Source: Bilabrum cf. latius | Taxonomy: Eukaryota | DNA: 64,000 nt | Reading direction: 5' to 3' | Assembly (NCBI GenBank): GCA_965178125.1 | Contig: OZ237738.1 | Location: forward strand, 806,001 to 870,000 | In this document: piece after piece, positions 25,901 through 60,582 of the stretch | How the letters are laid out: each line of letters starts with the position of its first letter | Position numbering within the stretch: the stretch's first letter is position 1 | Notes under the pieces: model-generated | Told to the model about the DNA's origin: nothing | Seen by the model: only the letters and a program-made list of their open reading frames with translations | The model's database searches: none | Position numbers and translations under genes: made by a program

Positions 25901-26607
25901 TACGGGCCATGTGGGCTTCCGCGACCTTCTTTTCGTCCATCACGCGAGCCAGGCTTTGCGCCCAACGAAGCATCTCGTCTTCTTTCCTGCAGCAAAACTT
26001 GTACTGTCGCTCGGACGTGTCGATGCTGAACACATGATTGAATGGCGGCGCCTTGATACTTAAGAAGCTGAAGTTCCGCCGCGTCTTTGCTGCATCTACT
26101 CTTGCTGCGATGTTTAAGTTGCTTTAAACATATATCAATGTATAGTGAAGTGAGCGAGCCGGGAGGAAGATGCTGCTGGAGACGGCGAGGGCCAGATTGC
26201 AGCAGCAGCCAAGACTCACACCGACCAACTCTTAGGACGCCGTTGCGCAAAACTATGGCAGTCCCATTCTTGCGTCGAATAGCTTCAGACTTGCTGTCGT
26301 AGTAATACATGATCCGTCCTCCATCGTGAACGCACCACCTGCGACCTCGGCGGAAGATCGGTGGAAACCGAACAAAAGTTGCATGCAACCAAACGGGGCT
26401 AAAAGAGAAAGCAGTAACTGGACGAAGATTTGTAAAATAGCCCATGTACCAAGCTCACCTGTACGACCATTCCGTGTGCTGCGCGTTAATCTTCAAGAGC
26501 TTGCCAAACACAGTGCTTCCCTCGAAACCCAGCTTCTCGTTCAGTTCCTTCCTCTCTTCAATGGTCAGATCCTCCTCCTCAGTACCCCTAGAGGCACTGG
26601 ATGACAT
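10920..26607 (-). CDS. Giant ferlin-like multi-C2 protein (~5,100 aa) with N-terminal PH domain
   Basis: Twenty minus-strand ORFs from 25764 to 10989 share one frame (lower coordinates all divisible by 3) and are separated only by TAG. Ferlin-like segments: GPAWIAMYGSP..QYRGMVLVS; Y*LRINIFSARHLPAADKGGTSDPY; ILLEVWDKD..DRLG; LLGGFMVDLEQRW; LETRTL..GSVQCWVDI..EIRVVVW; GFFNWRM; GTGREAPNALPYLKDP. PH motif at the N-terminus (GKLLK..WSYRWCV..IMYY..FSIDTSERQYKFCC..EMLRWAQSL) split by two short introns. Ends at TAA 10920-10922. Confidence 0.85.
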
Positions 26608-31381: not shown

Positions 31382-31531
31382 TGTGCCATTGGTATACTAC
31401 TAGTTCCGGGATAAGAGCTCCAAGACCAGTGATAGCGTGCCAATACTGGTATACGATCCGCGCACCACGAACGCGAAGAAGCGAGCATCACGAGTGGAAT
31501 CCGAGAAGAAAGGAGAACAGAGAAAAATTTC
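31382..31531 (+). repeat. Split direct repeat A1 (150 bp)
   Basis: TGTGCCATTGGTATACTACTAG...GAGAAAAATTTC, repeated at 37058-37207. Confidence 0.95.
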
Positions 31532-31805
31532 GAGGCTTACCGGAATCAATGGGGAGTTACTGTTAAGCCAGCTTGTCAGGATGCCAGCTAAGCCTCAGGA
31601 CAAACAAGTCAGAGGCCGGCGACAAACTGCAAGCAGACCTTAAAGTGACACACGCGACAGCTAGCCTGCAAAACAGTAATAGTGGTACCGTATCCGAGGG
31701 ACTTAAAAATTGCAATTATGATACTGTTGAAATAGCGCCCACGGCGTGGTCTCCCTCCGTTAAGAATTCTCTCCTTGGGCGCGGACCTCGCGATCGGCAA
31801 TAAAC

Positions 31806-34800: not shown

Positions 34801-36522
34801 TGCATTGTGCTGTTTGGTTTTGCTTGTGCGGCGCTCGCTGCCTGGGCTTCCTTCGTTGACCTTGTCCGCCTTGGGCGTGGGTCAGCGGGGAGGACTGAGC
34901 GGCGCGAGCTGCACCAGCATCTCTGCATTGTGCTGTTTGGTTTTGCTTGTGCGGCGCTCGCTGCCTGGGCTTCCTTCGTTGACCTTGTCCGCCTTGGGCG
35001 TGGGTCAGCGGGGAGGACTGAGCGGCGCGAGCTGCACCAGCATCTCTGCATTGTGCTGTTTGGTTTTGCTTGTGCGGCGCTCGCTGCCTGGGCTTCCTTC
35101 GTTGACCTTGTCCGCCTTGGGCGTGGGTCAGCGGGGAGGACTGAGCGGCGCGAGCTGCACCAGCATCTCGGCATTGTGCTGTTTGGTTTTGCTTGTGCGG
35201 CGCCCGCTGCCTGGGCTTCCTTCGTTGACCTTGTCCGCCTTGGGCGTGGGTCAGCGGGGAGGACTGAGCGGCGCGAGCTGCGCCAGCATCTCTGCATTGT
35301 GCTGTTTGGTTTTGCTTGTGCGGCGCTCGCTGCCTGGGCTTCCTTCGTTGACCTTGTCCGCCTTGGGCGTGGGTCAGCGGGGAGGACTGAGCGGCGCGAG
35401 CTGCACCAGCATCTCTGCACTGTGCTGTTTGGTTTTGCTTGTGCGGCGCTCGCTGCCTGGGCTTCCTTCGTTGACCTTGTCCGCCTTGGGCGTGGGTCAG
35501 CGGGGAGGACTGAGCGGCGCGAGCTGCACCAGCATCTCTGCATTTGTGCTGTTTGGTTTTGCTTGTGCGGCGCTCGCTGCCTGGTCTCCCTTCGTTGACC
35601 TTGTCCGCCTTGGGCGTGGGTCAGCGGGGAGGACTGAGCGGCGCGAGCTGCACCAGCATCTCTGCATTTGTGCTGTTTGGGCTGGCTTGTGCGGCGCTCG
35701 CTGCCTGGGCTCCCTTCGTTGACCTTGTCCGCCTTGGGCGTGGGTCAGCGGGGAGGGCTGAGCGGCGCGAGCTGCACCAGCATCTCTGCATTGTGCTGTT
35801 TGGTTTTGCTTGTGCGGCGCTCGCTGCCTGGGCTTCCTTCGTTGACCTTGTCCGCCTTGGGCGTGGGTCAGCGGGGAGGACTGAGCGGCGCGAGCTGCAC
35901 CAGCATCTCTGCATTGTGCTGTTTGGTTTTGCTTGTGCGGCGCCCGCTGCCTGGGCTTCCTTCGTTGACCTTGTCCGCCTTGGGCGTGGGTCAGCGGGGA
36001 GGACTGAGCGGCGCGAGCTGCACCAGCATCTCGGCATTGTGCTGTTTGGTTTTGCTTGTGCGGCGCCCGCTGCCTGGGCTTCCTTCGTTGACCTTGTCCG
36101 CCTTGGGCGTGGGTCAGCGGGGAGGACTGCGCGGCGCGAGCTGCGCCAGCATCTCTGCATTTGTGCTGTTTGGTTTTGCTTGTGCGGCGCTCGCTGCCTG
36201 GGCTTCCTTCGTTGACCTTGTCCGCCTTGGGCGTGGGTCAGCGGGGAGGACTGCGCGGCGCGAGCTGCACCAGCATCTCTGCATTGTGCTGTTTGGTTTT
36301 GCTTGTGCGGCGCCCGCTGCCTGGGCTTCCCTCGTTGACCTTGTCCGCCTTGGGCGTGGGTCAGCGGGGAGGACTGAGCGGCGCGAGCTGCACCAGCATC
36401 TCTGCATTGTGCTGTTTGGTTTTGCTTGTGCGGCGCTCGCTGCCTGGGCTTCCTTCGTTGACCTTGTCCGCCTTGGGCGTGGGTCAGCGGGGAGGACTGA
36501 GCGGCGCGAGCTGCACCAGCAT
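31806..36522 (+). repeat. Tandem satellite of ~38 units of 123/124 bp
   Basis: Unit ACTGAGCGGCGCGAGCTGCACCAGCATCTCTGCATT(T)GTGCTGTTTGGTTTTGCTTGTGCGGCGCTCGCTGCCTGGGCTTCCTTCGTTGACCTTGTCCGCCTTGGGCGTGGGTCAGCGGGGAGG. A 1-bp indel (CATTG/CATTTG) shifts frame between copies. Confidence 0.97.
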
Positions 36523-36717
36523 GCATTCTCTGCTCTGTTGTAAAAGGGGAATGGACTGCATGACCCGCTTGATTTTGATTTTGATTTCTATTATTGATAT
36601 GCATCCTTTTATATTCATGTGGAGGTGCCATCTTGCATCTGTGGGATTTGGCACCCCACATGGGCCTCTTCCTAGCAATGGATGGACTGGCAATGCCAGG
36701 GGCTATTTCTGGGCCAA

Positions 36718-37207
36718 TGGGTGTCCCTGCGGCGGTTCGATGGGCGAACCACCAAGGGGGGGCCCAGTGTTGTTCCCTGACCAAGTGGTAGGCCGTCCCC
36801 AAAGTGGCGTGAATGGTCCGATCCACCTACCCAGCGGCCAGGGCAACACCAGCCAATACCACAGCGCCACGGAAGGAGGAGAGAAGTAGGAGAATGACGA
36901 CGACGTGCGACTGATACCGAGAACGAGGCGAGGCGAGCAGGAGACGAGAGCGAGGATGAACGGAGCACGGTCACGCGAGCCGGAGGGCAAGCGTGGCCGA
37001 GATGAGGGATGATTGCTACTAGTGACTGTGTCGGACGTAACCAGATAAGCGCCATCATGTGCCATTGGTATACTACTAGTTCCGGGATAAGAGCTCCAAG
37101 ACCAGTGATAGCGTGCCAATACTGGTATACGATCCGCGCACCACGAACGCGAAGAAGCGAGCATCACGAGTGGAATCCGAGAAGAAAGGAGAACAGAGAA
37201 AAATTTC
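36718..37207 (+). repeat. Internal B1-A2 junction (340-bp B1 directly followed by 150-bp A2)
   Basis: Junction ...AAGCGCCATCA|TGTGCCATTGG at 37057/37058 equals the element's right end joined to its left end. Confidence 0.93.
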
Positions 37208-37641
37208 AAAAAATTCGATTCTCATGCGAGACCTCCTCCCCCCATGAAGTCCTGGGGGGCAGGGGGGGGAGAAGGGACGAGAGCGAGAGGCCAGCGTGAC
37301 AGACGCGGTGGGACTTGGGCGCAGGACATGCGCGAGATACGACGGGCCATCTAGAGGAAACCGACGAGTCAGGCCACCTGACTGCTGCCTTTCGATAGGC
37401 TGATAATTGGGAGCAATAGCGAAGTTATCCGGACGTGGCCCAAGTCTGGGCCAGGCAGCAAGTAAGTAGCAGGTACCCGCGATGACGCAGCGAGCACGAG
37501 CGCAGCGGGGTCCAACAATGGGAACTAACCTCTCCCCTGCCCCCACTACCTATGTAACCAACCCCTTCCACATCTCGCAAAATAGCGAGGCAGATTGTGC
37601 ATTATCAGCTGACCAGGATCAGACGGGGACGAGGGCCGAGA

Positions 37642-38137
37642 CGTTGCGGACGGCAACGGAGCAGGGCCAGTAGGACCGTGCAGGAATGGATATCCAGGAT
37701 TGCACGGACCCGCCGGTGAGGCAGGGAGCCTCCACCCTTCGTCATCAGCCAGGGTGTGACTACGTAGTCACCCCTGGTGCTTGTACTTCACTGTTCAGCA
37801 CGGGTTTGCAAGCGGATGGCGTAGGGGGCCAGGGACTAGGCTTGAGTCCCCGTGGGACCATGATGTGGGAACCAAAACATCATTCAAGAACAGGTTCCGG
37901 TGACCCGGGTCTGACTCCGTTAGGCGGAGCTGTCGTCGAGTCGTTGCGGAGGGCAACGGAACAGGGCCAGTAGGACCGTGCAGGAATGGCCATCCAGGAT
38001 CGCACGGAGCTGCTGGTGAGGCAGGGAGCCTCCATCCTTCGTCATCAGCCAGGGTGTGACTCCGTGGTCACCCCTGGTGCTTGTACTTCACTGTTCAGCA
38101 CGGGTTTGCAAGCGGATGGCGTAGGGGGCCAGGGACT
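37642..38137 (+). repeat. Two diverged ~196-bp direct repeats with 300-bp period in the A2-B2 spacer
   Basis: CGTTGCGGA..GGCAACGGA..CAGGGCCAGTAGGACCGTGCAGGAATGG...GTAGGGGGCCAGGGACT at 37642 and 37942. Confidence 0.9.
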
Positions 38138-38802
38138 GGCTGAGTCATGTGAGCGTGGGATACGGATAGGGGTCGGGGACCTGAAGTCCGAACTTCAGGC
38201 GACCGGCGACACACCAAGCGTGCGTCACCCTATTCGCCCGGTAGCGGCACAGCGTGGAACTGCAATGTGGCAAGTGAGGACCTGTTGATCTTGACCACGG
38301 GACTGGAAGCATAGGTGTGGTCCGTGCCGCAAAATCCCCCATAGTGGAGCACCTTGTGGAAGGAAGTAGGAAAGCGCTGGCGGCAGGCACAGGGCACTCT
38401 CGTCCGTTGGATGGCTCCGTAGCCGAAGGGGGACGAGGTGGACCTGCACAGCCGAGAGGAGAGCCTGGATCTCGGACCGACCTTGGGACAGTCGCACCGG
38501 CGACACCCACCGAGAGAGCGGGGCGTTCCAGCACAGCGAATCGCTCGGGCGAGGACGCCCGTTTGCTGCAAGAGACACCGAAAGGCGTGGACGGCAGCCG
38601 GACCTCGGATCCTCACGAAGGGTAAGGCAAGGGTTGCCTGAATAGGAGCGAGCCGGATTGCGACTGTGATGGGCAGTGGACGAGCATACAGGACCGCCCC
38701 GGGCGTGGTGGGCTGTGCGGGATGTGCGAGTCGACATGCCTATCTCGATCGAGAAAACTTCTTTTCTTTTTGCGTGGATGCCCCTCCTAGGCGGAGGCGG
38801 CG

Positions 38803-39142
38803 TGGGTGTCCCTGCGGCGGTTCGATGGGCGAACCACCAAGGGGGGGCCCAGTGTTGTTCCCTGACCAAGTGGTAGGCCGTCCCCAAAGTGGCGTGAATG
38901 GTCCGATCCACCTACCCAGCGGCCAGGGCAACACCAGCCAATACCACAGCGCCACGGAAGGAGGAGAGAAGTAGGAGAATGACGACGACGTGCGACTGAT
39001 ACCGAGAACGAGGCGAGGCGAGCAGGAGACGAGAGCGAGGATGAACGGAGCACGGTCACGCGAGCCGGAGGGCAAGCGTGGCCGAGATGAGGGATGATTG
39101 CTACTAGTGACTGTGTCGGACGTAACCAGATAAGCGCCATCA
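38803..39142 (+). repeat. Split direct repeat B2 (340 bp)
   Basis: TGGGTGTCCCTGCGGCGG...CCAGATAAGCGCCATCA, repeat of 36718-37057. Confidence 0.95.
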
Positions 39143-39415
39143 CGAGCCAAACCCCAGCGTAGCGAACCTTCGGATTCGCCTTGAGATTGGTTCGTCGTCT
39201 GATCGCGGCTTTGATATGCCGCGATCCCGGAAGCGGACACGTACACATCGAAATATACAAGATTGCACCTGCAATCAAACACACCTGTCGGCCCGAAGAC
39301 CAAAAGCAGCGATCAACCCTGTCGACAAACCCACCGCCCCTGATGCCAACCCATCCCAAAGGCGCACAACACCACAGTGGTCCTTTGTGTCCCGCCTTCA
39401 ATTTCATCCGATGCA

Positions 39416-43609: not shown

Positions 43610-46600
43610 TCACCACAGCCCAGTCTTGCCACCAGCGCGAGAGCTTTCACCAGCCCGCCCCCTAGCGTGCGGCCTCATTCGGCCTACCGCCCCGTAGCCC
43701 GCGCCAACGCCTGCAAGTGCCCCAGCTCCAGACCCCTCCACAGGCCGGCTTGCAACACTTGAGCCGCCGCGCCCTCCAACACCTGGAGCTGCAACCCCTG
43801 CCCTGCCTAGCTGCCCCCTCAGCTGAGCCAGTTCTTTCCGCAGCTCGTTGGATTGCTTATGCGAAGCAGACCCAGAGCTTAGCTAGTCTTCGATATCGCT
43901 CATGCGCCGCCGAAGCTAGTGCGGGTCAGATGGGGGCCGTGCGGCGGGCATGTGGTCAGACAGGGAGCCTGCATCGACACGGCTCGAGCCACCACGGCTG
44001 TACCCCCGGGGGTCTACCTCACGCACCGGAGCGCTGTCACGGCTCGAGCCACCACGGCTGTGCCTCAGCTGCTGCTCGGCCCGCCGCTCCGCAGCGGCCC
44101 TCATGCCCGGCCTGGGCCCTAGCCTCGCACCCCTCGCAAAGTCGCCGGGCCGCTTGCCCATCCTCGCCTCGATGGCTGCCTCCTCTCTCTCCCGCTCCTC
44201 GAGCTCCCTTCTCTTCCGTCTCTCGTCTCTCTCCTGCTGGATCGCCCCCCACACCTGGCGCAGTGCAGCCCTCTCCGCCTCAAAGGCAGCCGCTTCGGAC
44301 TCGCGGCACCGGCTCGACAGGTACTCGAGAACAGCGGGGGTACCCCGGGACAGCAGCTCCTGCCTGAGACCCCGCTGCGGGTTGCCGCCGATCCTCAGGG
44401 CCTTGAGCGAGTTGCAGCGCCCGAGCAGGGGATCCACCTGCCGGATGTCGTTGTTCTCCACGCTGAGCTCCTCGAGGCGGGGGAGCACGAGCAGCCTCCT
44501 AGGGACGGCCTGCAGCGCGTTGTTCCCCAGGTCTGCACGGACGAGAGTGGGGATGGCCAGCAGCTCCTCCTCGTCGCGACTCGGAATTGAAATGGAGTTG
44601 TAGCCCAGCCTCAGCTCCTCCAGCTCGGGGCACGACCCTAGCAGGGTGGGCAGCCGACGCAGCCTGCACCTCGATAGGTCGATGGTCCTGAGCCTGTCCA
44701 TCACCGGCGGTTCCTCGCCTGAGCCGGCAGCGCCAGCCACCAGAGCGTCGGCCCCCTCCTCGGATAGGGGATTCCCGGTGGCCAGGAGCTCCTTGAGCTT
44801 GGGCAGCTGAGCCATGGCAGGGAACAGCTGTGCAAGGCCGCACTCCGACACGTCCAGGACCCGCAGCTCGGGGCATGCCTCTGGAAGACGGTCCAGGGCC
44901 GCGGGCAGCTAGCCCCGCGGAAGCCCAGAGCACCCGGCAAACGACACGGCCCGCAGCCCGTGGAGGTGCATCGTGGCGAAGAGGACCCCGGGGAGGCCGG
45001 GGGGCTTCATCCCCCCCACGGCAAGCACACCCTCCGAGGACGCATCCCTGCACAGCATGGCCCAATCGGGGTGCCCCCGCTAGCGGCTAGCGTCTTCCAA
45101 TGCGCCGTACCAGTCTGCCATAGACATCGATGAAGCGGTGGGAGCCTGGGCGGTGGGAGCGCAGGCGGGCGTGCTTGCCGCCGCTGACGTGCCACTTGCT
45201 GCACCAGATGAGGCGCCTGTGCCCGGCATTCCACCCCTGGAGGTGCCACTATGACCACCCTTGGCGGCCGTTCCAGTGCCAGTGCTCGCGCCCCATCCGG
45301 TCCCCCCACTGGCTGCCCCTGCCGCCACTGTTCCCTCCCCCGCCCCGGCCCTCCTGTCCCCGAACCCGCCCCTCACCTTCCTGCCCTCCCTGGCTGCCTC
45401 TGCCGCCAGCATTTGTTCCTCAAGGACATCCGCTTCCTCGGGAGGCGCCCTTGTCCGCAGGTACCTCTTCAGGTCGTCGGCGCCCTGCGCGTTGAGCGCC
45501 TTCCTCATGGCCCGCATTGGGTTGCCGTCCAGCTGCACCCGGGACAGCGCGGGCATGTACCCGATGGAGTAGTGCAGCGACCGCAGATCATTGTTCCTCA
45601 GGTCTAGCGTGTGCAGGCCCGTGAGCCGGCCCAGTTCCTGAGGCAAGTCTGCCAGCCGGTTGTCCCTGAGGTCGAGCACGCCGAGGCAAGGGGCCGCCCC
45701 GAGGGCCTCAGGGCTTATGGTGCAGAGGCGGTTCTCGGCGAGGTGCAGGGCGTCTAGGGTTGTTGTCCGAGGAACACTGGGGAGGACCTCAAGCTGGTTC
45801 GCACGCAGGTCCAGCCGCACGAGGGAAGTGAGTCCCCGCAAGTCGCCGGGAAGCGATGCAATGCGGTTCCGGCTCAGGTCCAGCTCAGTTGCGCTGCCCA
45901 GCATTCCGATGCTGTCCGGGACAGATATCAAGCGGTTCTAGGACGCTCTCAGCACTCTTAGCTTTTGAAACTCCCCAAGAGTGTCTGGGAGTGCGCCAAT
46001 TCTGTTGGATGACACGTCCAACACCTCCAAAGTGTTCGCCAATGCTGCGAGACGAGCTTGATGCGAAACAGTGGATGATGGACTTGCTACTTGCAAGAAA
46101 CGTGAAGGCGAGCCGAAAATCAACAGCGGTATTGCACGTACCTTCGAGACCAACTGGCAGGGACTCAAGCTCATTTTCCATTAGGTGCATCTCGACGACT
46201 GGTGCGGCACCACTTCGCAAGATGGGCGGGATGGTGCGAAGCCGATTGTGGCTCAAATCGATGAGTTTGAGAGAAGGTATGCCCAAGAGAAACGATGAAA
46301 CCGCGTGTAACGCATTCCGAGAGGCTCGAAACATCGTGAGATCGGCCATGTCCTTCACTCCGTCTGGGATCTCCCGAATGGAGTTGCCGGATAAGTCTAG
46401 CCTGCGCAGCGGTTCAGACTCCCACCACTTCTCGTCACCGGCACGCTGCGGTAAACAATTTACATAAAAACTATTATAGAGCAATAAGAGGCAGTCGAAT
46501 GGTGCCTGGATTGTGCGTTTTGTGAAACTTACTTTGTCTTGGATTCTGAACACCGGTCCGGGGACACGCACCAGCCCCTTATTTGCCAGCTTGAGTGAAC

Positions 46601-46877: not shown

Positions 46878-49800
46878 ATGTCTGGCCAAACCTCGTTTCA
46901 TCAGGATGGTGCCTTGATGGGAAAATTGGGTGGTCTCCTGCGCCACGTTCGATCATCATCGTCTGGTTTACCGTACATGCCAACCACAGTGACTTCACTG
47001 GCTGGCGGCGATCGAGAAGGTTCGAGCAGTACGCCGGAACCAAGCCCTAGCATGCGTGCGTTCAGCCATGCGTGCCAAGCAGTCAGCCAAGGCGCAGCTG
47101 CTGCGCGCTAGCATCTCAGTACTCTGCGAGATGCAGCATCGAACTTATCCAGTGCATCGAGTGCCAAGCACGGCACAATAGCCGCAGCTTTCGAGTCTGG
47201 AGCAAATGAGCTTGAATCTCGAGCCGACAAGTTAGACGCCGAGGCGTCTCGCCGACAATTGTAGGCAAGGCTGAAGTCCTTACATCGAGGATTGAGAGCT
47301 AGTCATCGCTCATTGCTGGACCCTGCGAGAGCGAGCGACGAAGAGACTAGGGCTGCATAGGAAGGCAGGTCCGCGGGTACCGGTGCATGGCCCCTCCTGC
47401 CCCTCGGCTGGCCCTTGCTGGACCGCCCGTAGGACCCGCCGCAGGGTTACGGCCCAGTTTCGGTTTCTTCTATGGCGCACATCCAGGCCGGTGGCGGAGC
47501 AGTCAGGTGGGACATGCCGCCGGCCGTCACCCCGAGCGCGGCGCCCCGCTTCGCCCGCGTCGAAAAGCAATCCACAGTCTTTGCCGACGAAATGGAGCGC
47601 AGGGAAGTCATCCGCGCGAGAGCGCGCAAAGAGAAGCGAAGCGCCTTCATCCGCGCGGTGCAAGAGCACGCGTATCACTTCAGGGAGTACCACAAGGCTC
47701 GCCTGGAGGTGCAGAGGAGCCTCGCAGCTGACATCAGTGCCAAGCAGCAAGCAGTGCTCCGCGAGAGAGAAAAGGCAGCCGAGAAGCTGGAGCGCGAGAG
47801 ACTCAGGCAGCTGCGAGCGAGCGACGCGGGCGCCTACCAGAAGATGCTGGAGGAGGCCAAGACGGAGAGACTCAGGTATCTGATGGCCCAGACCGACAGC
47901 TTCCTCGAGGAGCTGGGCAGCAAGGTGGCCGAGCTCAGGGGAGAAGCGGCCGCGGATGCGGCTGCAGCGGCTAGGGCGGCTGCCATACAAATGGGGCGCG
48001 AAAGCCTCAAGTCGTCGTCCTCTTCCAAGGCCGCTGCGAGCGGGAGCAGGAGCAGGAGCGGGCAAGCTGCCATGTCGGATGAGGGGCAGGGTGATGGCGA
48101 TGGGGCAGAGGACGGGGGTTCTTCCTCGAGTGACGATGACGATGACGATGACGGCCCCGGTGACGGGGAGGGTGCTGCTGGCGGCAAGCGCAAAGGCAAG
48201 GCCCAGGATTTGTACTATTTGCTGGCACACAGGCAGCAGGAGAAGGTCACGAGGCAGCCGTCGATGCTGTTGGGCGGCCAGCTCAAGGCCTATCAGCTCA
48301 GGGGGCTCGAGTGGCTGGTGAGTCTGTACAACAACAACCTGAACGGGATCCTGGCCGATGAGATGGGCCTCGGGAAGACCGTGCAGACCATTAGCCTTCT
48401 GGCGCACCTCATCGAGCATAAGCACAATCGAGGCCCGTTCCTCATCGTGGTGCCGCTGTCAACCATGGGCAACTGGGCCAACGAGCTCGCTAAGTGGACA
48501 CCTGACATCCAGGTGATTGTGTACAAGGGCACCAAGGAGCAGCGCCGCGACATCTACAAAGACCTCATGCAGACGGGGCAGTTCAACGTGGTCCTCACAA
48601 CGTACGAGTACTGCATGAGGGACAAGAGCGTGCTCAAGAAGTGGCACTGGCAGTACATCATCATCGACGAGGGGCATAGGATGAAGAACGCTACCAGCAA
48701 GTTTGCGATGACGCTCGGGACCAACTACACCTCTCGGAACCGGCTGCTGCTCACGGGTACCCCCCTGCAGAACAGTCTCCCCGAGCTCTGGGCCCTGCTC
48801 AACTTCCTACTGCCGAGCATCTTCCACTCATGCGATACCTTTGAGCAGTGGTTCAACCAACCGTTTGCCAACTACAAGGCCGCGAGCGCCGGCCTGCCCA
48901 GCCTCAACAGCCTGCCCTCTGGGGCCGCAGGTGCCGACGACCCGCTGAGCCACGAAGAGAACATGCTGGTCATCAACCGGCTGCACCAGGTGCTGCGGCC
49001 GTTCCTGCTGCGTCGTGTGAAGTCAGACGTGCTGGGACAGCTGCCGCAGAAGAGTGAGAGCATCGTGAACTGTGGCTTGTCCGCATGGCAGCGCGAATGG
49101 TACGAGCAGCTGCGCAAGTTCGGAACCATCGGGGTCGGCGGCGACGCGGGGTCGGGCGTGCGGGGGAGTGGCACGAGGTCGCTGAACAACATGGTTATGC
49201 AGCTGAGAAAGGTGGTGAACCACCCGTATCTATTCCTTGAGAACGGGTATGACGTAGACGAGGCCATCATCCGTGCCAGTGGCAAGTTTTCGATGCTCGA
49301 CCGGCTGCTGCCGAAGCTGCGCGCCTCGGGGCACCGCGTGCTTATCTTCAGCCAGATGACCCAGCTCATGGACGTGATGGGCGACTACTTTGCGTACAGG
49401 GGCTTCCGATTCCTGCGGCTCGATGGGTCAACCGCGGCAGAAGAGCGAGAGAAGCGAATGGCCATGTTCAACCGCCCGGACAGCCCGCACTTCATTTTTC
49501 TCCTCTCCACGAGGGCGGGTGGGCTGGGCGTGAATCTCGCCACGGCAGACACGGTAATTCTCTTCGACAGCGACTGGAATCCTACCATGGACGCGCAGGC
49601 GCAGGACAGGGCCCACAGGATCGGGCAGACGCAGGAGGTGCGCGTGCTGAGGCTCGTCACCAAGACGCCCATCGAGACGAGGATCATGGACAGAGCGAGC
49701 GAAAAAGCGTCCATGGAGGCGGTGGTGATCGGCGCGGGCGAGTTCAACACTCAGGGAACAACGGTGGACTCAGCAGGTCGCAGGCGGGCAGCGCTGGAAG

Positions 49801-51140
49801 AGCTTCTCAAGTCGGGCGTAGACGACGAGGACAAGGAGGAAGAGGAGGACGATGGCGACGAAGACGAAGACGTCGAGAGCGGCGAGGCCGACGCTTCCGA
49901 GGGAGTCGGGAAAAGTGCGACAGCCGGCCGGGGACGCAAGAAAAAGAAGATGAAGGGCGCTTCCAGCGGTGCCAGTGGAAGCAGCAGTAGCAGCGGTGCT
50001 GGTGCCCAGGACCCGGCCAGCTGGACCAAGAATGCCGCGCGCAGTGCCGGCATACAACTGAGCGAGTCGGACGACACTCTGAACGAGATGATGGCGCGCA
50101 GTGAAGATGAGATTCAGCTCTTTGAGCAGTTTGATCAAGCTCGTAACGAGGCATTGCGAAGGGCATGGCAAGCGGCTGGGAGGTCGGATCCGCCGCCCCC
50201 TGCCCTGCTGGGCAAGACAGAGGTGCCCCGGTGGGTCTTCCGGTCGGACGACCAGCTGGACCTTGCTCGCATGGAGGAGCAGAGGAGGGACGAGATGGGC
50301 CGCGGGTCTAGGAAGAGGGCGAGGGTGACGTACGCCGAGGAGCTGACGGACCGCGAGTTCCTTCGGCTGGCAGACAAGGGGGCCTCTGAGGAGGAGATGG
50401 AGGTGGCCAGGGCCAGGAAGAGGATCAGGATGCGGGTGCTGAGCGCGGAGGCGGCTGGTGAGGACCTGGGCAAGGCTGGTGAGGAGGCCGAGAGGGATGC
50501 CATGGAGAGCCTGAAGGAGGACCCAGTGGCCGCGCAGGTGGCAGAGGAGGAGAGGGCGAGGGAGGAGAAGAGGGCCAGGAAGAGGGAGAGGGAGAGGGCA
50601 CGCAGACAGAAGCTCAAGGACCAGGTCAAGCCGGACTAGGAGCCGGACGCCATCGACGCGGAGGCCATCCCGTCGGACCCCGTGGAGCTGCGGCGGCGCG
50701 CGGACGTGTGCGACCAGGTGAAGGCGGCTCTGTCCTTGATTCGGAGGCAGACGGACGAGCACGGGCATCCTCTGTGCGGGTTGTTTGAGCGCGAGCCTGA
50801 CATCCAGCTGTACCCTCGGTACTATGACGTGGTGAAGCGGCCCATTGCCTTGGACTCGATGGACCGGCGGGCCGCGGAGCTGAGGTACAGGTCCACGGAG
50901 CGTTTCCTGGCGGATGTTGGTCAGATGAGGAACAACGCGTATCAGTTCAATGGGGAGGGGTCCGCGGTGCGGGTGCTGGCGGACCGCATCTTGGGGATGG
51001 CGCGGCGGCAGCTGGCGAGCGACCATGAGGGCGCGGGCGAGGGCGCGGGGAGGGCAGGCCCTGCTTGTGCGTCCGGTGGGGGACCTGTGCGTGTGGGCTC
51101 GTCGGCTTGTGGTATGTCGGCTGCCATGGAGGAGGGTTGA
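46878..51140 (+). CDS. SMARCA2/4-like: SWI/SNF catalytic ATPase of the BRM/BRG1/Snf2 subfamily (HSA, SNF2 ATPase, C-terminal bromodomain), ~1,420 aa
   Basis: [73 protein letters not shown]; bromodomain YPRYYDVVKRPIAL..NNAYQFN. Frame is open from ATG 46878 with only TAGs (four upstream of 47472, one at 50637-50639) to TGA 51138-51140. Confidence 0.95.
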
Positions 51141-51326
51141 TGTGTTTTTGCACGGATGTGGACGTGTGCGCATTACCCATTGTTCGGTTACGCTTGACCA
51201 GCGAGTATGAGGTACGTGCGGGTCTGCTCGGAGCAGTTCGAGTGTCTGGTCCCTCAGGGGAATCGCGCGTTACTTTGTGATGGCAAAGCAGATGATATCA
51301 GATTCCACTTCCTGAGGTTTGTCCGA

Positions 51327-51707
51327 GCACGGACAGGGGCGCGGCGGCCAGGGAACCTCGGGGCTAAGCGCGCCCATGCAGGGAGTCAAGCAGGGAGGCC
51401 GGGAGGCAGAGTCGAGCATGACATCTCCACAAGCCTACCCCACAAGAACACCCGATATATATTTTAGGGGGGGGAACCCAACCCATCCTAGCACGGACAG
51501 GGGCACGGTGGCCAGGGAATCCCGGGGCTAAGCGCGCCCATGCAGGGAGTCGTGCGGCGAGGCCGAGGAGCCGAGTCTAGCATGACCCTTCCACGAACCA
51601 GCACCGCAAGAACACCACTTTGAGAAAGAGGAACCCAACCCATCCTAGCACGGACAGGGGCACAGCGGCCAGGGAACCACGGGGCTAAGCGCGCCCATGC
51701 AGGAGCG
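51327..51707 (+). repeat. Three ~160-bp-period repeats inside a ~640-bp segment present only in triplication copy 1
   Basis: AGCACGGACAGGGGC..GGCCAGGGAA..CGGGGCTAAGCGCGCCCATGCAGG at ~51327, 51490 and 51647. Confidence 0.85.
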
Positions 51708-52221
51708 GAGCACAGCAACTGAAATACACGCAATCTCGGCCCGCAGGGCCGAGCACAAACAGACAAACAAAGAATAATAAAAGCGAAGGGAATACACACG
51801 ACATGTTGACCCCCATACCTTACCTTTGTACGGCTGGGGTCTGCTGTATTTACGAAGGAGTGGGGCGCGCAGGGTTTGCAGCTAGTGCCTGCGTAAAGTA
51901 ACGTGCCATTCCCTCTAGAATGCAATATAGCCTGCAGCGATAAGCATATTTTCGCTTTGCCATCGGATCGGGGTGCCTTTGTGCGCCTGCATTGATCGCA
52001 AGCAGTCTGTGCTAGATCTGTGGTGAGCAGGGTCGATCGGCGCCGTGGACTTGCTGGCAGTGTGGGCTGGAGCCGCTTGGCGGGAGATCTGAGAGCAGGT
52101 CGATCCTCCATCAGGCTGGGGGCTCGCGGTCCTTGCATCAAGTGGTGTGACTCAGGTGTAAGCGACATTGGCATAAAGGCTTGGTAAGGTGTTTGAAGCT
52201 CAGTGTGTGTGATTGCTGGGA

Positions 52222-53766
52222 ATGGCCCAGAGTAGTGCAGCATCCGATGTGATCGATCTCGTGAGCGAGTCTAGCTGTAGCGACACGGAAAGCGACTAGG
52301 ATGAATCCTGGTCGTAGGATGCTGCCACGATCACACGTCCATTGCGCCAAGCGCATGCCGGTAGCCGAGGGCAGGCAAGACGTCAGCAGGCTTAGTAGTA
52401 CGGGCCAGCATCCGCCAAGGAGTCAAGCGCGAATGGAGCTTTGTCATCTGGCAGCAGCAAGGAAGTGTTGGCATTGTGTGGGTCAATGTCAGCAGCTGGC
52501 GCGCGGGAGTCTGCATCTGCATCTGCATGTGCATCGCTTGGGCGGAAGAGGTCGAGGGGCCGAGAAGTTGACGATCCAGTGCGTTCGAGTGGTGGTGCAG
52601 TCGCTTCCAAGAGACGGCGCAGAGAGGGAGGATCAGATGCGAGCTAGCATGAGTGCGAGGTGTGTGGGAAGGTGCTGAGCTCGATGAGAAACTTGCTGCA
52701 GCATGTGACTGTGGTGCACTTGGGTGAGCGCAATCACGAGTGCGAGGTGTGTGGCAAGCGCTTCGGGGTGGCAGGTACTCTCAAGGCGCACATGAGGACT
52801 GTGCATGTTGGGGAGCGCAATCACGAGTGCAGTGTGTGCGGCAAGCGCTTCGGGGTGGCAGGCGATCTCAAAAAGCACATGAGGACTGTGCATGTTGGGG
52901 AGCGCAATCACGAGTGCATGGAGTGCGGCAAGCGCTTCGGGGAGGCAGGCGATCTCAAAAAGCACATGAGGACAGTGCATCTTGGGGAGCGCAATCACGA
53001 GTGCAGTGTGTGCGGCAAGCGCTTCGGGCAGGCAGGCCATCTCAGGACGCACATGAGGACAGTGCATCTTGGGGAGCGCAATCACGAGTGCAGTGTGTGC
53101 AGGAAGCGCTTTGGGGTGGGTGGCCATCTCAGGACGCACATGATGACTGTGCATGTTGGGGAGCGCAATCACGAGTGCAGTGTGTGCGGCAAGCGCTTCG
53201 GGCAGGCAGGTCATCTCACATAGCACATGATGACTGTGCATCTTGGGGAGCGCAATCACGAGTGCATGGAGTGCGGCAAGCGCTTCGGGGAGGCAGGCGA
53301 TCTCAAAAAGCACATGAGGACAGTGCATCTTGGGGAGCGCAATCACGAGTGCAGTGTGTGCGGCAAGCGCTTCGGGCAGGCAGGTCATCTCACATAGCAC
53401 ATGAGGACTGTGCATCTTGGGGAGCGCAATCACGAGTGCAGTGTGTGCGGCAAGCGCTTCGGGCAGGCAGGCAATCTCAGGACGCACATGAGGACTGTGC
53501 ATGTTGGGGAGCGCAATCACGAGTGCAGTGTGTGCGGCAAGCGCTTCGGGGTGGCAGGGGATCTCAGGAGGCACATGAGGACTGTGCATGTTGGGGAGCG
53601 CAATCACGAGTGCAGTGTGTGCGGCAAGCGCTTCGGGGTGGCAGGGGATCTCAGGAGGCACATGAGGACTGTGCATGTTGGGGAGCGCAATCACGAGTGC
53701 ATGGAGTGCGGCAAGCGCTTCGGGGTGGCAGGCAATCTCAAGAGGCACATGAGGACTGTGCATTGA
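52222..53766 (+). CDS. C2H2 zinc-finger array protein, copy 1 (13 fingers)
   Basis: ATG 52222 (MAQSSAASDVIDLVSESS), basic NLS-like RKRSR..KRRRR, then 87-bp/29-aa CxxC..HxxxxH-LGERN repeats. Only TAG interruptions (e.g. 52645, 53221, 53395). Ends at TGA. Confidence 0.88.
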
Positions 53767-54090
53767 TTGGTGATGGGCCATAGCTGCCGATTGCGGTGTG
53801 CATGAGTTGGACCTCCATCAGCTCAGCTCTCGAGCATGCAGCAATGCGCGACTTCGGCTTTCCCCTTCCACCCAGCACCAGGACAATGCCCGAGTCCTCG
53901 CCAGGACACGGCATCTGCTGCACGCTATGCATGCCATGGTATAGCAGCTGCTTGGTGAGATCCGGTAGTGGTGGATAGATCGTCGTGCGTGCGTTTGCTC
54001 CTGCGTGGCCATGCAGCAGGACGTGCTGGCTCACCATGGCAATCAAGGCTGGGGCATCCGTCCAGGTGATGTCGCTCGCTGCCTGCTGCC

Positions 54091-55086
54091 GTGCTGGGCA
54101 AGACAGAGGTGCGCCCGTTGTGGGTGTGCCGGTGGGACGCCCAGCTGGATGTAGCTCGCATGGAGGAGCAGAAGAGAGACGAGATGGGCCGCGGGTCCAG
54201 GAAGAGGGCGAGGGTGACGTACGCCGAGGAGCTGACGGACCGCGAGTTCCTTCGGCTGGCAGACAAGGGGGCCTCTGAGGAGGAGATGGAGGTGGCCAGG
54301 GCCAGGAAGAGGATCAGGATGCGGCTGCTGAGCGCGGAGGCGGCTGGTGAGGACCTGGGCAAGGCTGGTGAGGAGGCCGAGAGGGAGGCCATGGAGAGCC
54401 TGAAGGAGGACCTGGGCAAGGCTGGTGAGGAGGCCGAGAGAGAGGCCATGGAGAGCCTGAAGGAGGACCCAGTGGCCGCGCAGGTGGCAGAGGAGGAGAG
54501 GGCGAGGGAGGACAAGAGGGCCAGGAAGAGGGAGAGGGAGAGGGCACGCAGACAGAAGCTCAAGGACCAGGTCAAGCCCGACTAGGAGCCGGACGCCATC
54601 GACGCGGAGGCCATCCCGTCGGACCCCGTGGAGCTGCGGCGGCGCGCGGACGTGTGCGACCAGGTGAAGGCGGCTCTGTCCTTGATTCGGAGGCAGACGG
54701 ACGAGCACGGGCATCCTTTGTGCGGGTTGTTTGAGCGCGAGCCTGACATCCAGCTGTACCCTCGGTACTATGACGTGGTGAAGCGGCCCATTGCCTTGGA
54801 CTCGATGGACCGGCGGGCCGCGGAGCTGAGGTACAGGTCCACGGAGCGTTTCCTGGCGGATGTTGGTCAGATGAGGAACAACGGGTATCAGTTCAATGGG
54901 GAGGGGTCCACGGTGCGGGTGCTGGCGGACCGCATCTTGGGGATGGCGCGGCGGCAGCTAGCGAGCGACCATGAGGGAGAGGGCGAGGGCGCGGGGAGGG
55001 CAGGCCCTGCTTGTGCGTCCGGTGGGGGACCTGTGCGTGTGGGTTCGTCGGCTTGTGGTATGTCGGCTGCCATGGAGGAGGGTTGA
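54091..55086 (+). other. 5'-truncated duplicate of the SNF2 C-terminus (bromodomain only); pseudogene or short gene
   Basis: Near-identical to 50205-51140, frame intact through the same TAG (54583-54585), carries an extra in-frame 57-bp duplication, lacks the ATPase. Confidence 0.8.
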
Positions 55087-55524
55087 TGTGTTTTTGCATG
55101 GATGTGGACGTGTGCGCATTACCCATTGTTCGGTTACGCTTGACCAGCGAGTATGAGGCACGTGCGGGTCTGCTTGGAGCGGCTAGCTTTGGTCCCTCAG
55201 GGGAATCGCGCGTTACTTTGTGAGTAAAGCAGATGATAATCAGATTCCACATTTTCACTTTGCCATCGGGTCGGGGTGCCTGTGTGCGCCTGCATTGATC
55301 GCAAGCAGTCTGTGCTAGATCTGTGGTGAGCAGGGTCGATCGGCGCCGTGGACTTGCTGGCAGTGTGGGCTGGAACTGCTTGGCGGGAGATCTGACAGCA
55401 GGTCGATCCTCCATCAGGCTGGGGACCCGCGGTCCCTGCATCAAGTGGTGTGATTCAGGTGTAAGCGACATTGGCACAAAGGCTTGGTAAGGTGTTTGAA
55501 GCTCAGTGTGTGTGATTGCTGGGA

Positions 55525-57591
55525 ATGGCCCAGAGTAGTGCAGCATCCGATGTGATCGATCTCGTGAGCGAGTCTAGCTGTAGTGACACGGAAAGCGACT
55601 AGGATGAATCCTGGTCGTAGGATGCTGCCACGATCACACGTCCATTGCGCCAAGCGCATGCCGGTAGCCGAGGGCGGGCAAGAAGTCAGCAGGCTTAGTA
55701 GTACGGGCCGGCATCCGCCAAGGAGTCAAGCGTGAATGGAGCTTTGGCATCTGGCAGCAGCAAGGAAGTGTTGGCATTGTGTGTGTCAATGTCAGCAGCT
55801 GGCGCGCGGGAGTCTGCATCTGCATCTGCATCTGCATCGCTTGGGCGGAAGAGGTCCAGGGGCCGAGAAGTTGACGAGCCAGTGCGTTCGAGTGGTGGTG
55901 CAGTCGCTTCCAAGAGACGGCGCAGAGAGGGGGGATCAGATGCGAGCTAGCATGAGTGCGAGGTGTGTGGGAAGGTGCTGAGCTCGATGAGAAACTTGCT
56001 GCAGCATGTGACTGTGGTGCACTTGGGTGAGCGCAATCACGAGTGCAGTGTGTGCGGCAAGCGCTTCGGGCAGGCAGGCCATCTCACAAGGCACATGAGG
56101 ACTGTGCATGTTGGGGAGCGCAATCACGAGTGCAGTGTGTGCGGCAAGCGCTTCGGGGAGGCAGGCGATCTCAAAAAGCACATGAGGACAGTGCATGTTG
56201 GGGAGCGCAATCACGAGTGCAGTGTGTGCGGCAAGCGCTTCGGGCTGGCAGGCCATCTCACAAAGCACATGAGGACAGTGCATGTTGGGGAGCGCAATCA
56301 CGAGTGCAGTGTGTGCAGGAAGCGCTTTGGGGTGGGTGGCCATCTCAGGACGCACATGATGACTGTGCATCTGGGGGAGCGCAATCACGAGTGCAGTGTG
56401 TGCGGCAAGCGCTTCGGGCAGGCAGGTCATCTCACATAGCACATGATGACTGTGCATCTTGGGGAGCGCAATCACGAGTGCAGTGTGTGCGGCAAGCGCT
56501 TCGGGCAGGCAGGCAGTCTCAGGACGCACATGAGGACTGTGCATCTTGGGGAGCGCAATCACGAGTGCAGTGTGTGCGGCAAGCGCTTCGGGCAGGCAGG
56601 CAGTCTCAGGACGCACATGAGGACTGTGCATCTTGGGGAGCGCAATCACGAGTGCAGTGTGTGCGGCAAGCGCTTCGGGGAGGCAGGCAGTCTCAAGAAG
56701 CATATGAGGACTGTGCATCTTGGGGAGCGCAATCACGAGTGCAGTGTGTGCGGTAAGTGCTTCGGGGTGGCAGGTCATCTCAGAAAGCACATGATGACTG
56801 TGCATGTTGGGGAGCGCAATCACGAGTGCAGTGTGTGCGGCAAGCGCTTCGGGGAGGCAGGCAACCTCAAGACGCACATGATGACTGTGCATCTGGGGGA
56901 GCGCAATCACGAGTGTTTGGAGTGCGGCAAGCGCTTCGGGCAAGCAGGCCATCTCAAGAGGCACATGAGGACTGTGCATCTTGGGGAGCGCAATCACGAG
57001 TGCAGTGTGTGCGGCAAGCGCTTCGGGGTGGCAGGCCATCTCAGAAAGCACATGAGGACTGTGCATGTTGGGGAGCGCAATCACGAGTGCAGTGTGTGCG
57101 GCAAGCGCTTCGGGGAGGCAGGCGATCTCACAAAGCACATGAGGACAGTGCATCTTGGGGAGCGCAATCACGAGTGTAGTGTGTGCGGCAAGCGCTTCGG
57201 GGAGGCAGGCAGTCTCAGGACGCACATGAGGACTGTGCATGTTGGGGAGCGCAATCACGAGTGCAGTGTGTGCGGCAAGCGCTTCAGGGAGGCAGGCCAT
57301 CTCAAGAGGCACATGAGGACTGTGCATGTTGGGGAGCGCAATCACGAGTGCAGTGTGTGCGGCAAGCGCTTCAGGGAGGCAGGCCATCTCAAGAGGCACA
57401 TGAGGACAGTGCATGTTGGGGAGCGCAATCACGAGTGCAGTGTGTGCGGCAAGCGCTTCGGGGTGGCAGGCAGTCTCAAGACGCACATGAGGACTGTGCA
57501 TGTTGGGGAGCGCAATCACGAGTGCAGTGTGTGCGGGAAGCGCTTCGGGGTGGCAGGCAGTCTCAAGAGGCACATGAGCAGAGTGCATTGA
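55525..57591 (+). CDS. C2H2 zinc-finger array protein, copy 2 (19 fingers)
   Basis: Same N-terminus as copy 1, 87-bp repeats, TAGs at 55948 and 56437 and in the N-terminal region. Ends at TGA. Confidence 0.88.
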
Positions 57592-57919
57592 TTGGTGATG
57601 GGCCATAGCTGTCGATTGCGGTGTGCATGAGTTGGACCTCCGTCAGCTCTGCTGTCTAGTAAGCAGCAATGCGCGACCTCAGCCTCCCCCTCGACCCAGC
57701 ACCAGGACAATGCCCCGAGTCCTAGCCAGGGCACGAAAAGCAGCTGCTGCACGCTATGCATGCCATGGTATAGCAGCTGCTTGGTGAGATCCTGTGGTGG
57801 TGGAGAGGTCGTCGTGCAAGTGTTTGCTCCTGCGTGGCCATGCAGCAGGACGTGCTGGCTCACCATGGCAATCAAGGCTGGGGCATCTGTCCAGGTGATG
57901 TTGCTCGCTGCCTGCTGCC

Positions 57920-58858
57920 GTGCTGGGCAAGACAGAGGTGCCCCCGTTGTGGGTGTGCCGTTGGGACGACCAGCTGGATGTAGCTCGCATGGAGGAGCAG
58001 AGGAGGGACGAGATGGGCCGCGGGTCTAGGAAGAGGGCGAGGGTGACGTACGCCGAGGAGCTGACGGACCGCGAGTTCCTTCGGCTGGCAGACAAGGGGG
58101 CCTCTGAGGAGGAGATGGAGGTGGCCAGGGCGAGGAAGAGGATCAGGATGCGGCTGCTGAGCGCGGAGGCGGCTGGTGAGGACCTGGGCAAGGCTGGTGA
58201 GGAGGCCGAGAGAGAGGCCATGGAGAGCCTGAAGGAGGACCCAGTGGCCGCGCAGGTGGCAGAGGAGGAGAGGGCGAGGGAGGAGAAGAGGGCCAGGAAG
58301 AGGGAGAGGGAGAGGGCACGCAGACAGAAGCTCAAGGACCAGGTCAAGCCCGACTAGGAGCCGGACGCCATCGACGCGGAGGCCATCCCGTCGGACCCCG
58401 TGGAGCTGCGGCGGCGCGCGGACGTGTGCGACCAGGTGAAGGCGGCTCTGTCCTTGATTCGGAGGCAGACGGACGAGCACGGGCATCCTTTGTGCGGGTT
58501 GTTTGAGCGCGAGCCTGACATCCAGCTGTACCCTCGGTACTATGACGTGGTGAAGCGGCCCATTGCCTTGGACTCGATGGACCGGCGGGCCGCGGAGCTG
58601 AGGTACAGGTCCACGGAGCGTTTCCTGGCGGATGTTGGTCAGATGAGGAACAACGCGTATCAGTTCAATGGGGAGGGGTCCACGGTGCGGGTGCTGGCGG
58701 ACCGCATCTTGGGGATGGCGCGGCGGCAGCTAGCGAGCGACCATGAGGGAGAGGGCGAGGGCGCGGGGAGGGCAGGCCCTGCTTGTGCGTCCGGTGGGGG
58801 ACCTGTGCGTGTGGGTTCGTCGGCTTGTGGTATGTCGGCTGCCATGGAGGAGGGTTGA
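57920..58858 (+). other. Second 5'-truncated duplicate of the SNF2 C-terminus (bromodomain only)
   Basis: Near-identical to 50205-51140, same TAG at 58355-58357. Ends at TGA. Confidence 0.8.
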
Positions 58859-59298
58859 TGTGTTTTTGCATGGATGTGGACGTGTGCGCATTACCCATTG
58901 TTCGGTTACGCTTGACCAGCGAGTATGAGGCACGTGCGGGTCTGCTCGGAGCAGTGTTATGTCTGGTCCCTCAGGGGAATCGCGCGTTACTTTGTGAGTA
59001 AAGCAGATGATAATCAGATTCCACATTTTCACTTTGCCATCGGGTCGGGGTGCCTGTGTGCGCCTGCATTGATCGCAAGCAGTCTGTGCTAGATCTGTGG
59101 TGAGCAGGGTCGATCGGCGCCGTGGACTTGCTGGCAGTGTGGGCTGGAACTGCTTGGCGGGAGATCTGACAGCAGGTCGATCCTCCATCAGGCTGGGGAC
59201 CCGCGGTCCCTGCATCAAGTGGTGTGATTCAGGTGTAAGCGACATTGGCACAAAGGCTTGGTAAGGTGTTTGAAGCTCAGTGTGTGTGATTGCTGGGA

Positions 59299-60582
59299 AT
59301 GGCCCAGAGTAGTGCAGCATCCGATGTGATCGATCTCGTGAGCGAGTCTAGCTGTAGTGACACGGAAAGCGACTAGGATGAATCCTGGTCGTAGGATGCT
59401 GCCACGATCACACGTCCATTGCGCCAAGCGCATGCCGGTAGCCGAGGGCGGGCAAGAAGTCAGCAGGCTTAGTAGTACGGGCCGGCATCCGCCAAGGAGT
59501 CAAGCGTGAATGGAGCTTTGGCATCTAGCAGCAGCAAGGAAGTGTTGGCATTGTGTGTGTCAATGTCAGCAGCTGGCGCGCGGGAGTCTGCATCTGCATC
59601 TGCATCTGCATCGCTTGGGCGGAAGAGGTCCAGGGGCCGAGAAGTTGACGAGCCAGTGCGTTCGAGTGGTGGTGCAGTCGCTTCCAAGAGACGGCGCAGA
59701 GAGGGAGGATCAGATGCGAGCCAGCATGAGTGCGAGGTGTGTGGGAAGGTGCTGAGCTCGATGAGAAGCTTGCTGCAGCATGTGACTGTGGTGCACTTGG
59801 GGGAGCGCAATCACGAGTGCAGTGTGTGCGGCAAGCGCTTCGGGGTGGCAGGCAGTCTCAGAACGCACATGAGGACTGTGCATGTTGGGGAGCGCAATCA
59901 CGAGTGCAGTGTGTGCGGCAAGCGCTTCGGGCAGGCAGGCAATCTCACAAAGCACATGAGGACTGTGCATGTTGGGGAGCGCAATCACGAGTGCAGTGTG
60001 TGCGGCAAGCGCTTCGGGGAGGCAGGCAGTCTCAGGACGCACATGAGGACTGTGCATGTTGGGGAGCGCAATCACGAGTGCAGTGTGTGCGGCAAGCGCT
60101 TCGGGCAGGCAGGCAGTCTCAAGACGCACATGATGACTGTGCATGTTGGGGAGCGCAATCACGAGTGCAGTGTGTGCGGCAAGCGCTTCGGGCAGGCAGG
60201 CAATCTCACAAAGCACATGAGGACTGTGCATGTTGGGGAGCGCAAGCACGAGTGCAGTGTGTGCGGCAAGCGCTTCGGGGAGGCAGGCAGTCTCAGGACG
60301 CACATGAGGACTGTGCATGTTGGGGAGCGCAATCACGAGTGCAGTGTGTGCGGCAAGCGCTTCGGGGTGGCAGGCCATCTCAAGAGGCACATGAGGACAG
60401 TGCATCTTGGGGAGCGCAATCACGAGTGCAGTGTGTGCGGAAAGCGCTTCGGGCAGGCAGGCGATCTCAAGACGCACATGAGGACTGTGCATGCTGGGGA
60501 GCGCAATCACGAGTGCAGTGTGTGCGGCAAGCGCTTCGGGGTGGCAGGCCATCTCAGGAGGCACATGAGGACTGTGCACTGA
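59299..60582 (+). CDS. C2H2 zinc-finger array protein, copy 3 (10 fingers)
   Basis: ATG 59299, four TAGs in the N-terminal region (including CAG CAG GCT TAG TAG TAC), uninterrupted finger array. Ends at TGA. Confidence 0.9.

Follow-up and report, generated by a model that had tools for sequence, protein, structure and literature searches.

Three tandem genes (ZF1, ZF2 and ZF3) in a 64,000-nucleotide stretch of contig OZ237738.1 (positions 806,001 to 870,000; hereafter the window) encode arrays of C2H2 zinc fingers that, judged from their sequences, combine a homogenized, purifying-constrained backbone with several residues kept at intermediate frequency at helix positions −1, +3 and +6, and that appear to differ sharply between young paralogues. 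We consider it very probable that the three proteins are diversifying sequence-specific DNA readers. The genes and their parts are as follows.

52222..53766, plus strand: ZF1 gene, 514 amino acids (aa), 13 fingers, array at 52648-53763
55525..57591, plus strand: ZF2 gene, 688 aa, 19 fingers, array at 55951-57588
59299..60582, plus strand: ZF3 gene, 427 aa, 10 fingers, array at 59725-60579
51945..52221, plus strand: upstream region common to ZF1-3, with copies at 55248-55524 and 59022-59298
52246..52320, plus strand: putative SUMO-interacting motif (SIM)-like hydrophobic core, then an acidic/Ser tract, a pattern match (aa 9-33 of ZF1, identical in ZF2 and ZF3)
52543..52623, plus strand: two basic clusters read as a possible bipartite nuclear localization signal (NLS; aa 108-112 and 130-134)

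Each gene ends in TGA and keeps a finger register of 29 aa or 87 bp, and a tandem-repeat search returned 87-bp periods at the arrays. The fingers are of the CX2C-HX4H type, non-canonical in HX4H spacing and canonical in linker length; the full-length proteins matched the Pfam finger families zf-C2H2 and zf-H2C2_2 and conform to the tandem CX2C-X12-HX3-5H pattern. No Pfam match was obtained with the 142-aa N-terminus, and KRAB, SSXRD and SET/PR are absent from the Pfam families listed for the full-length proteins, the remainder of which is made up of fingers. The original prediction, made by a model from the DNA letters, had described arrays of 13, 19 and 10 fingers of 87-bp units, a SIM-like core with an acidic/Ser tract and an NLS-like basic region in the N-terminus, and no KRAB or SET domain; the arrays were found where it placed them, the two N-terminal features are present as sequence patterns, and the Pfam result agrees with the last point.

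Finger 1 of each gene, which is both divergent and conserved, was left out, so that the homogenized set comprises 39 of the 42 fingers. Nucleotide identity in this set is 95.2% outside codons −1, +3, +5 and +6 and 66.5% within codons −1, +3 and +6. Amino acid heterozygosity at the canonical contacts is 0.70 at −1 (V/Q/E/L), 0.75 at +3 (H/S/D/N/T) and 0.74 at +6 (T/K/R/TAG/A); it is 0.66 at +5 (K/R/T), 0.52 and 0.34 at the V/L and R/M sites of the linker, and 0 at +2, an invariant Gly. The −1/+3/+6 combination ranks first in variability among 1771 position triples, and 22 distinct contact triplets occur among the 39 fingers. Variation had been predicted to concentrate at −1, +3 and +5/+6, and all of these are indeed highly variable; of them +5 does not belong to the canonical base contacts, and the two linker sites vary too.

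Among the 31 distinct full fingers the pairwise proportion of non-synonymous differences (pN) is 0.395 at the contacts and 0.036 in the backbone, where that of synonymous differences (pS) is 0.078, and non-synonymous diversity at the contacts is about fivefold that of four-fold synonymous sites. In terms of nucleotide heterozygosity, positions 1-2 of the contact codons reach 0.47, contact third positions 0.03 and four-fold sites 0.09; the low value at third positions next to that at positions 1-2 argues against a local mutation hotspot. The excess of contacts over four-fold sites is similar gene by gene and gives a Mann-Whitney p of about 0.001, although the sites are not independent. Excess variation at the contact positions had been set beforehand as the test, and it holds in both the internal diversity and the pN/pS checks. 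All four gametes are present at 64 of 105 pairs of sites, and a published warning states that conversion invalidates tree-based tests (Baker 2017). Between ZF2 and ZF3, 3 of the 142 codons of the N-terminus are changed, but the two arrays have one finger type and no run of fingers in common, indicating a faster turnover in the arrays than in the flanks, a contrast that homogenization of the flanks might inflate. The original prediction had noted a finger order that differs between the copies. The Baker statistic for ZF1, ZF2 and ZF3 is 0.45, 0.46 and 0.57 without finger 1 and 0.37, 0.40 and 0.39 with it; the median of 103 named animal arrays is 0.21, and two of the 103 reach 0.37-0.40. Two gecko KRAB/SCAN-ZF genes (P0002 and P0011) show the same homogenized, contact-variable pattern.

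None of the three reading frames is open unless TAG is read as sense (7, 6 and 4 TAG in ZF1, ZF2 and ZF3 respectively). We take TAG as sense genome-wide because internal TAG occurs 49 times, and internal TAA not once, in eight other open reading frames (ORFs) of the window, and because the alignment of SF3B1 with its homologues runs through its TAG; the same counts led us to reject TAG as a premature stop. Across the window TAG is sense and TAA and TGA are stops (for example in 10920-25973, 26777-31024 and 46878-51140). TAG is probably decoded as Gln: ZF3 has CAG at the site of a TAG in ZF1 and ZF2, and the SF3B1 TAG site is Gln in a 99%-identical database protein, which was perhaps itself called with table 15. 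Neighbour context disfavours Glu (0.6% of held-out Glu sets) without marking Gln out from the other residues; counter to Gln, 24 of 28 named SF3B1 homologues carry Glu at one TAG site. Neither a tRNA nor an Rfam match was obtained. Reassignment of UAG only is described for ciliates and for one fornicate, one rhizarian and one green alga, stramenopiles being unmentioned in the portion of that source available to us (PMC11687900), and it may be a new case here if the host is a stramenopile.

Four of 17 listed sequencing runs were compared with the window, all four consisting of contigs, whose depth is not copy number. Run X2 behaves like DNA of the window's strain. Run X5 is labelled 'RNA? (probably DNA)' and was counted as RNA solely because it skips a GT-AG intron (46045-46141). 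The 5′ region, the N-terminus and the fingers of the ZF genes are represented in both X5 and X6, in X5 with ZF2/ZF3 letters, so that, with X5 taken as RNA, the genes are apparently transcribed. The single-copy pieces listed show no difference from the window in any of the four runs, and we therefore see no second strain among them. X2 and X5 also contain a finger type not in the window and diverged ZF paralogues (records 8, 14 and 15) with N-terminal indels of +3 and −6, together with a copy, carrying −1/+1/+2 indels, of the SNF2-derived tail described below; these records indicate at least five ZF members, with ZF frames kept and an older tail decaying. The family thus comprises the three tandem genes and at least two diverged paralogues, and is detectable only at 85% identity or above.

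More distant relatives were sought in databases and in environmental sequence. Homologue searches with the ZF proteins gave generic fingers: in one, with 8000 candidates scored, the best identity was 54% and the matches were mostly vertebrate; in another, identity was at most 54% among the best 150 representatives. None of 106 named homologue matches contained a 29-aa array. A strict finger pattern had no match in metagenome and viral contigs; a relaxed two-finger pattern matched at least 119 metagenome loci (L001-L119), mostly in few assemblies, and at least one viral locus (L120), and at least 110 of the arrays have three or more fingers. This environmental family equals ZF1-3 in finger length, in the H-x-R-T-V-H ending and in helix vocabulary (11 of the 22 window triplets recur), with up to 50% identity among the matches listed. 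It is unlike ZF1-3 in being much larger and less homogenized, with a median nucleotide identity of 0.82, a variable +2 position and short, basic N-termini without the SIM-like motif, and in having no SNF2 tail. Of 46 environmental arrays with six or more fingers, 42 are more diverse at the contact positions than at four-fold sites; among the 86 arrays of four or more fingers in the matches listed, the statistic is 0.37 or higher in 12, and nucleotide identity is 85% or higher in 19. One subtype alone accounts for at least 81 loci, in which at least 259 different fingers and at least 140 triplets occur, and its backbone uniformity is partly a product of the selection filter used. Condensin and NSUN5 genes adjoin some of the finger loci, from which we conclude that the hosts are eukaryotes. 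As other eukaryotes sampled from the environment have this larger family with the same finger type, the window arrays are, on finger type and pattern, a highly homogenized branch of a wider non-animal family. Similar proteins presumably occur in the pelagophyte Aureococcus. Zinc fingers are not mentioned in the Pelagomonas genome paper.

Some environmental loci carry additional domains. On two AT-rich virus-like contigs (L120:2425-3342 and L025:2923-3696) 4-6 fingers of the 29-aa type are fused to a C-terminal domain of about 135 aa that by eye resembles a PD-(D/E)XK nuclease and has no Pfam match, with a weak A32-like ATPase adjoining in L025; the C-terminal domain common to L024 and L069 resembles, on visual inspection, a Tudor domain, with no Pfam match for L069.

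The host is probably a non-animal, a protist. An earlier SF3B1 tree gave no resolution; in an 18-row SF3B1 tree the window groups among stramenopiles on a long branch, and grouping with animals is rejected (p-AU 0.024, 2000 replicates), fungi, green plants and amoebozoa not being rejected. The predicted independent origin in a protist therefore stands in part: the host is probably non-animal, on weak tree support, but the arrays are not unique to it. The SF3B1 gene (26777-31024) differs by several substitutions from the 99%-identical database protein (P0121), which suggests a second strain or sister species as the source of the latter.

Our fuller reading is that ZF1-3 are nuclear, diversifying readers, reshuffled by exchange, whose N-terminus recruits SUMO-linked repression to changing repeats or mobile DNA; to this statement taken whole we give a chance slightly short of even. 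Unequal crossing-over and conversion among the 87-bp units would reshuffle fingers, unequal exchange within the SNF2 tail would copy whole genes, and the invariant Gly at +2 could make the fingers nearly independent triplet modules. Selection would favour new specificities because the targets change. Most probably the SIM-like/acidic N-terminus would bind SUMOylated chromatin factors, and the output would be repression or packaging of fast-changing repeats, retroelements or endogenous viral DNA, a working mode like that of the KRAB zinc-finger proteins (KZFPs) and FiNZ proteins without their domains. A match to the SIM-like pattern, consisting of a hydrophobic core and a flanking acidic/phosphorylatable stretch, occurs in the ZF N-terminus, whereas nine other ORFs of the window, 10,465 aa in all, contain none. 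We also count in favour of the fuller reading the split A/B repeats of Ngaro type within the window. At a more general level we put forward, with greater reserve, that non-animal eukaryotes may have their own programmable poly-finger surveillance built on the 29-aa HX4H finger in parallel to KZFPs and PRDM9, with a small SUMO-linked, PRDM9-like form in a TAG-recoding protist and a KZFP-scale form elsewhere, in a race against retroelements or endogenous viruses; the virus-borne finger-nuclease genes may have their finger in common with it.

The A/B repeats are direct repeats (A1 31382-31531, B1 36718-37064, A2 37058-37207 and B2 38803-39149) that are 99-100% identical and together span 31382-39149. 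They enclose a 123/124-bp satellite (31806-36522), no reverse transcriptase or recombinase ORF was seen, and the A1-B1-A2-B2 order matches that of Ngaro retrotransposons (PMC8547959).

A number of results weigh against the fuller reading. Whole-finger pN/pS in the arrays is 0.71, compared with 2.7 for human PRDM9 (PMC5120217); +5 and the linker V/L site are nearly as variable as the contacts, and synonymous diversity at +5 is high; and N-terminal changes of the paralogues relative to ZF1 number 7-8 non-synonymous and 4 synonymous. When finger 1 is included and +2 counted, 5-7 of the 103 animal arrays equal or exceed ZF1-3. The visible family is small, about five genes or more. No homologue of the ZF N-terminus was found in Pfam, among short proteins or in the environmental loci, a search of the Protein Data Bank (PDB) with the first 25 aa had no match, the SIM-like pattern is absent from all 30 complete ORFs of the environmental family, and SIMs are loosely defined motifs (PMC12751080). 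Finally, a scan of the 64-kb window with motifs predicted from a crude recognition code found no target above shuffles: window-wide the best motif stood at 6/100, and of 27 regional tests one exceeded shuffles (ZF3 at 37202-37219), which is not significant window-wide.

It is possible, though in our view unlikely, that ZF1-3 are ordinary host-gene transcription factors that were recently duplicated and are now diversifying, without any genomic conflict being involved. The small family and recent tandem copies would fit this, as would the C2H2 expansions published for red algae and heterotrophic stramenopiles (PMC12071319, PMC5291267 and PMC4222949, in the available portions of which there is no such array analysis). 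Conserved factors of 5-6 fingers with the same finger type exist in the environmental set (L018, L033, L044 and L065), but their fingers are unlike each other (backbone identity about 0.3, statistic 0.12), and the diversity in the window lies within single arrays and between 99%-identical paralogues. A less probable alternative is that the proteins specify recombination sites as PRDM9 does, biased conversion eroding their targets and driving turnover, with the SIM-like motif as a link to SUMO-rich meiotic axes. Minisatellite-like homogenization with contact diversity is the PRDM9 signature, and the statistic lies between the extremes found for complete orthologues of PRDM9 (0.33-1.0; Baker 2017, Table 1), but the gecko KRAB/SCAN-ZF genes have this signature as well, the PRDM9 domains were not found by Pfam, and the genes are apparently transcribed in ordinary culture runs.

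A third alternative arises from the duplicated unit, which consists of the 3′ end of an SNF2 gene (original at 50191-51308; part of SnAC and the bromodomain) followed by a ZF gene, a tail copy being a feature of each unit absent from the original prediction.

46878..51140, plus strand: BRM/SMARCA2-type SNF2 ATPase gene (SNF2, helicase C, SnAC and bromodomain by Pfam), source of the copied tails
53767..54076, plus strand: spacer from the ZF1 stop to the tail copy, with in-frame TGA codons that prevent read-through
54077..55250, plus strand: SNF2 3′-end copy after ZF1 (ORF 54160-55086, part of SnAC and the bromodomain)
57592..57905, plus strand: spacer from the ZF2 stop to the tail copy
57906..59024, plus strand: SNF2 3′-end copy after ZF2 (ORF 57989-58858, part of SnAC and the bromodomain)

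A ZF gene and its tail might act jointly, by splice fusion or co-expression, and bring an acetyl-lysine reader to chosen sequences. In keeping with this both copies retain an intact bromodomain ORF, their changes from the native SNF2 gene number 7 synonymous and 4 non-synonymous, and one X5 contig joins the last finger to the tail, although a contig is no proof of a single transcript. We nevertheless regard joint action as very unlikely: in-frame stops follow each array with no typical splice donor ahead of them, so that no fusion is evident, the diverged tail copy has frame-changing indels whereas the diverged ZF N-termini have only +3 and −6, ZF3 is tail-less, and none of 120 related loci has an SNF2 match. 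The copied bromodomain tail is probably a passenger of the duplication. In the tail copies the initial 75 bp have diverged far more than the remainder, which suggests that the start of the tail copy may be an old junction refreshed by later exchange. A fall in duplicate-type letters beyond 50940 in X5 and X6 was put down to a contig hole and is at most a weak hint. Between SNF2 and ZF1 lies a 164-bp unit in 2.4 copies (51322-51703), absent from the ZF2 and ZF3 units, and contig depth over it suggests copies elsewhere.

The arrays could also be a coding minisatellite under relaxed constraint, shaped by helix-surface drift and unequal crossing-over, as the genome has other tandem repeats (the 123-bp satellite and a 405-bp coding repeat), allele counts are small and the fingers have no single tree in common. 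We already disfavour this and give it very little chance, since drift predicts pN close to pS, against the fivefold excess of contact pN over backbone pS and the nearly fixed third positions; moreover the satellite has a mean heterozygosity of 0.023 with 1 of 124 sites above 0.4, and the pattern recurs in the 42 environmental arrays. C2H2 fingers can bind RNA or protein, and the HX4H spacing is non-canonical, but binding of either in place of DNA is the least probable reading, as the variation lies at base-reading positions, the linker length is canonical and the top PDB matches of the arrays are the DNA-binding arrays of ZFP568, CTCF and PRDM9.

Two further features of the window may be recorded: an open frame of at least 2194 aa at 1-6585 (plus strand), made of 405/225/180-bp Ser/Gly/Val/Ala-rich repeats and likely a surface protein, and a 5017-aa ORF at 10920-25973 (minus strand) with 31 TAG codons, ferlin/C2-like by eye.

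By their domain content ZF1-3 are neither PRDM9 nor KZFPs, yet as far as their sequences tell they are evolving like both. With PRDM9 they have in common minisatellite-like homogenized fingers, diversity at −1/+3/+6 and one divergent first finger; PRDM9 has a KRAB, an SSXRD and a SET domain as well as 28-aa HX3H fingers, whereas ZF1-3 lack those domains and have 29-aa HX4H fingers and a probably non-animal host. KRAB-ZFPs and cyprinid FiNZ-ZNFs resemble ZF1-3 as clustered, recently duplicated poly-C2H2 genes whose products begin with a short acidic module and vary at the contacts (PMC10547256), and some gecko members of the KRAB-ZFP type are as homogenized as ZF1-3. In contrast, ZF1-3 have no KRAB, SCAN or FiNZ (no N-terminal match in Pfam or homologue searches, FiNZ's own profile not having been searched), few visible genes, no mobile-element target found and a best identity of 54%. 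The helices also resemble the engineered modules xxG[N/D/H/S]LxR/T, which use N, D, H and S at +3 for A, C, G and T (tables of PMC3607563 and PMC7317221): the window fingers likewise have Gly at +2 and sample N, D, H and S at +3, where Y, I and K, which are also one step away, are missing, and this helix pattern matches that of modules for GAA, GCA, GGA, GTT, GGT and TGA. Unlike such modules they are natural, have another framework and have neither Arg at −1 nor Asp at +2. Our literature search, which most subscription papers and supplements lay outside, turned up no paper describing arrays of this kind from a protist. Non-metazoan C2H2 proteins have been described as having limited, slowly evolving specificity (Najafabadi 2017, PMC5588721), and ZNF-based targeting of transposable elements as a likely metazoan innovation (Wells 2023, PMC10547256). 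While the value of the finding hinges on identification of the targets, contact-diversified arrays that reshuffle fast, in a host that is probably not an animal and with a large family running parallel elsewhere, would be a counter-example to both, would allow the forces behind array turnover to be tested independently (a race with transposable elements, genome stabilization or hotspot erosion), and, with one backbone and Gly at +2, would amount to a natural modular library.

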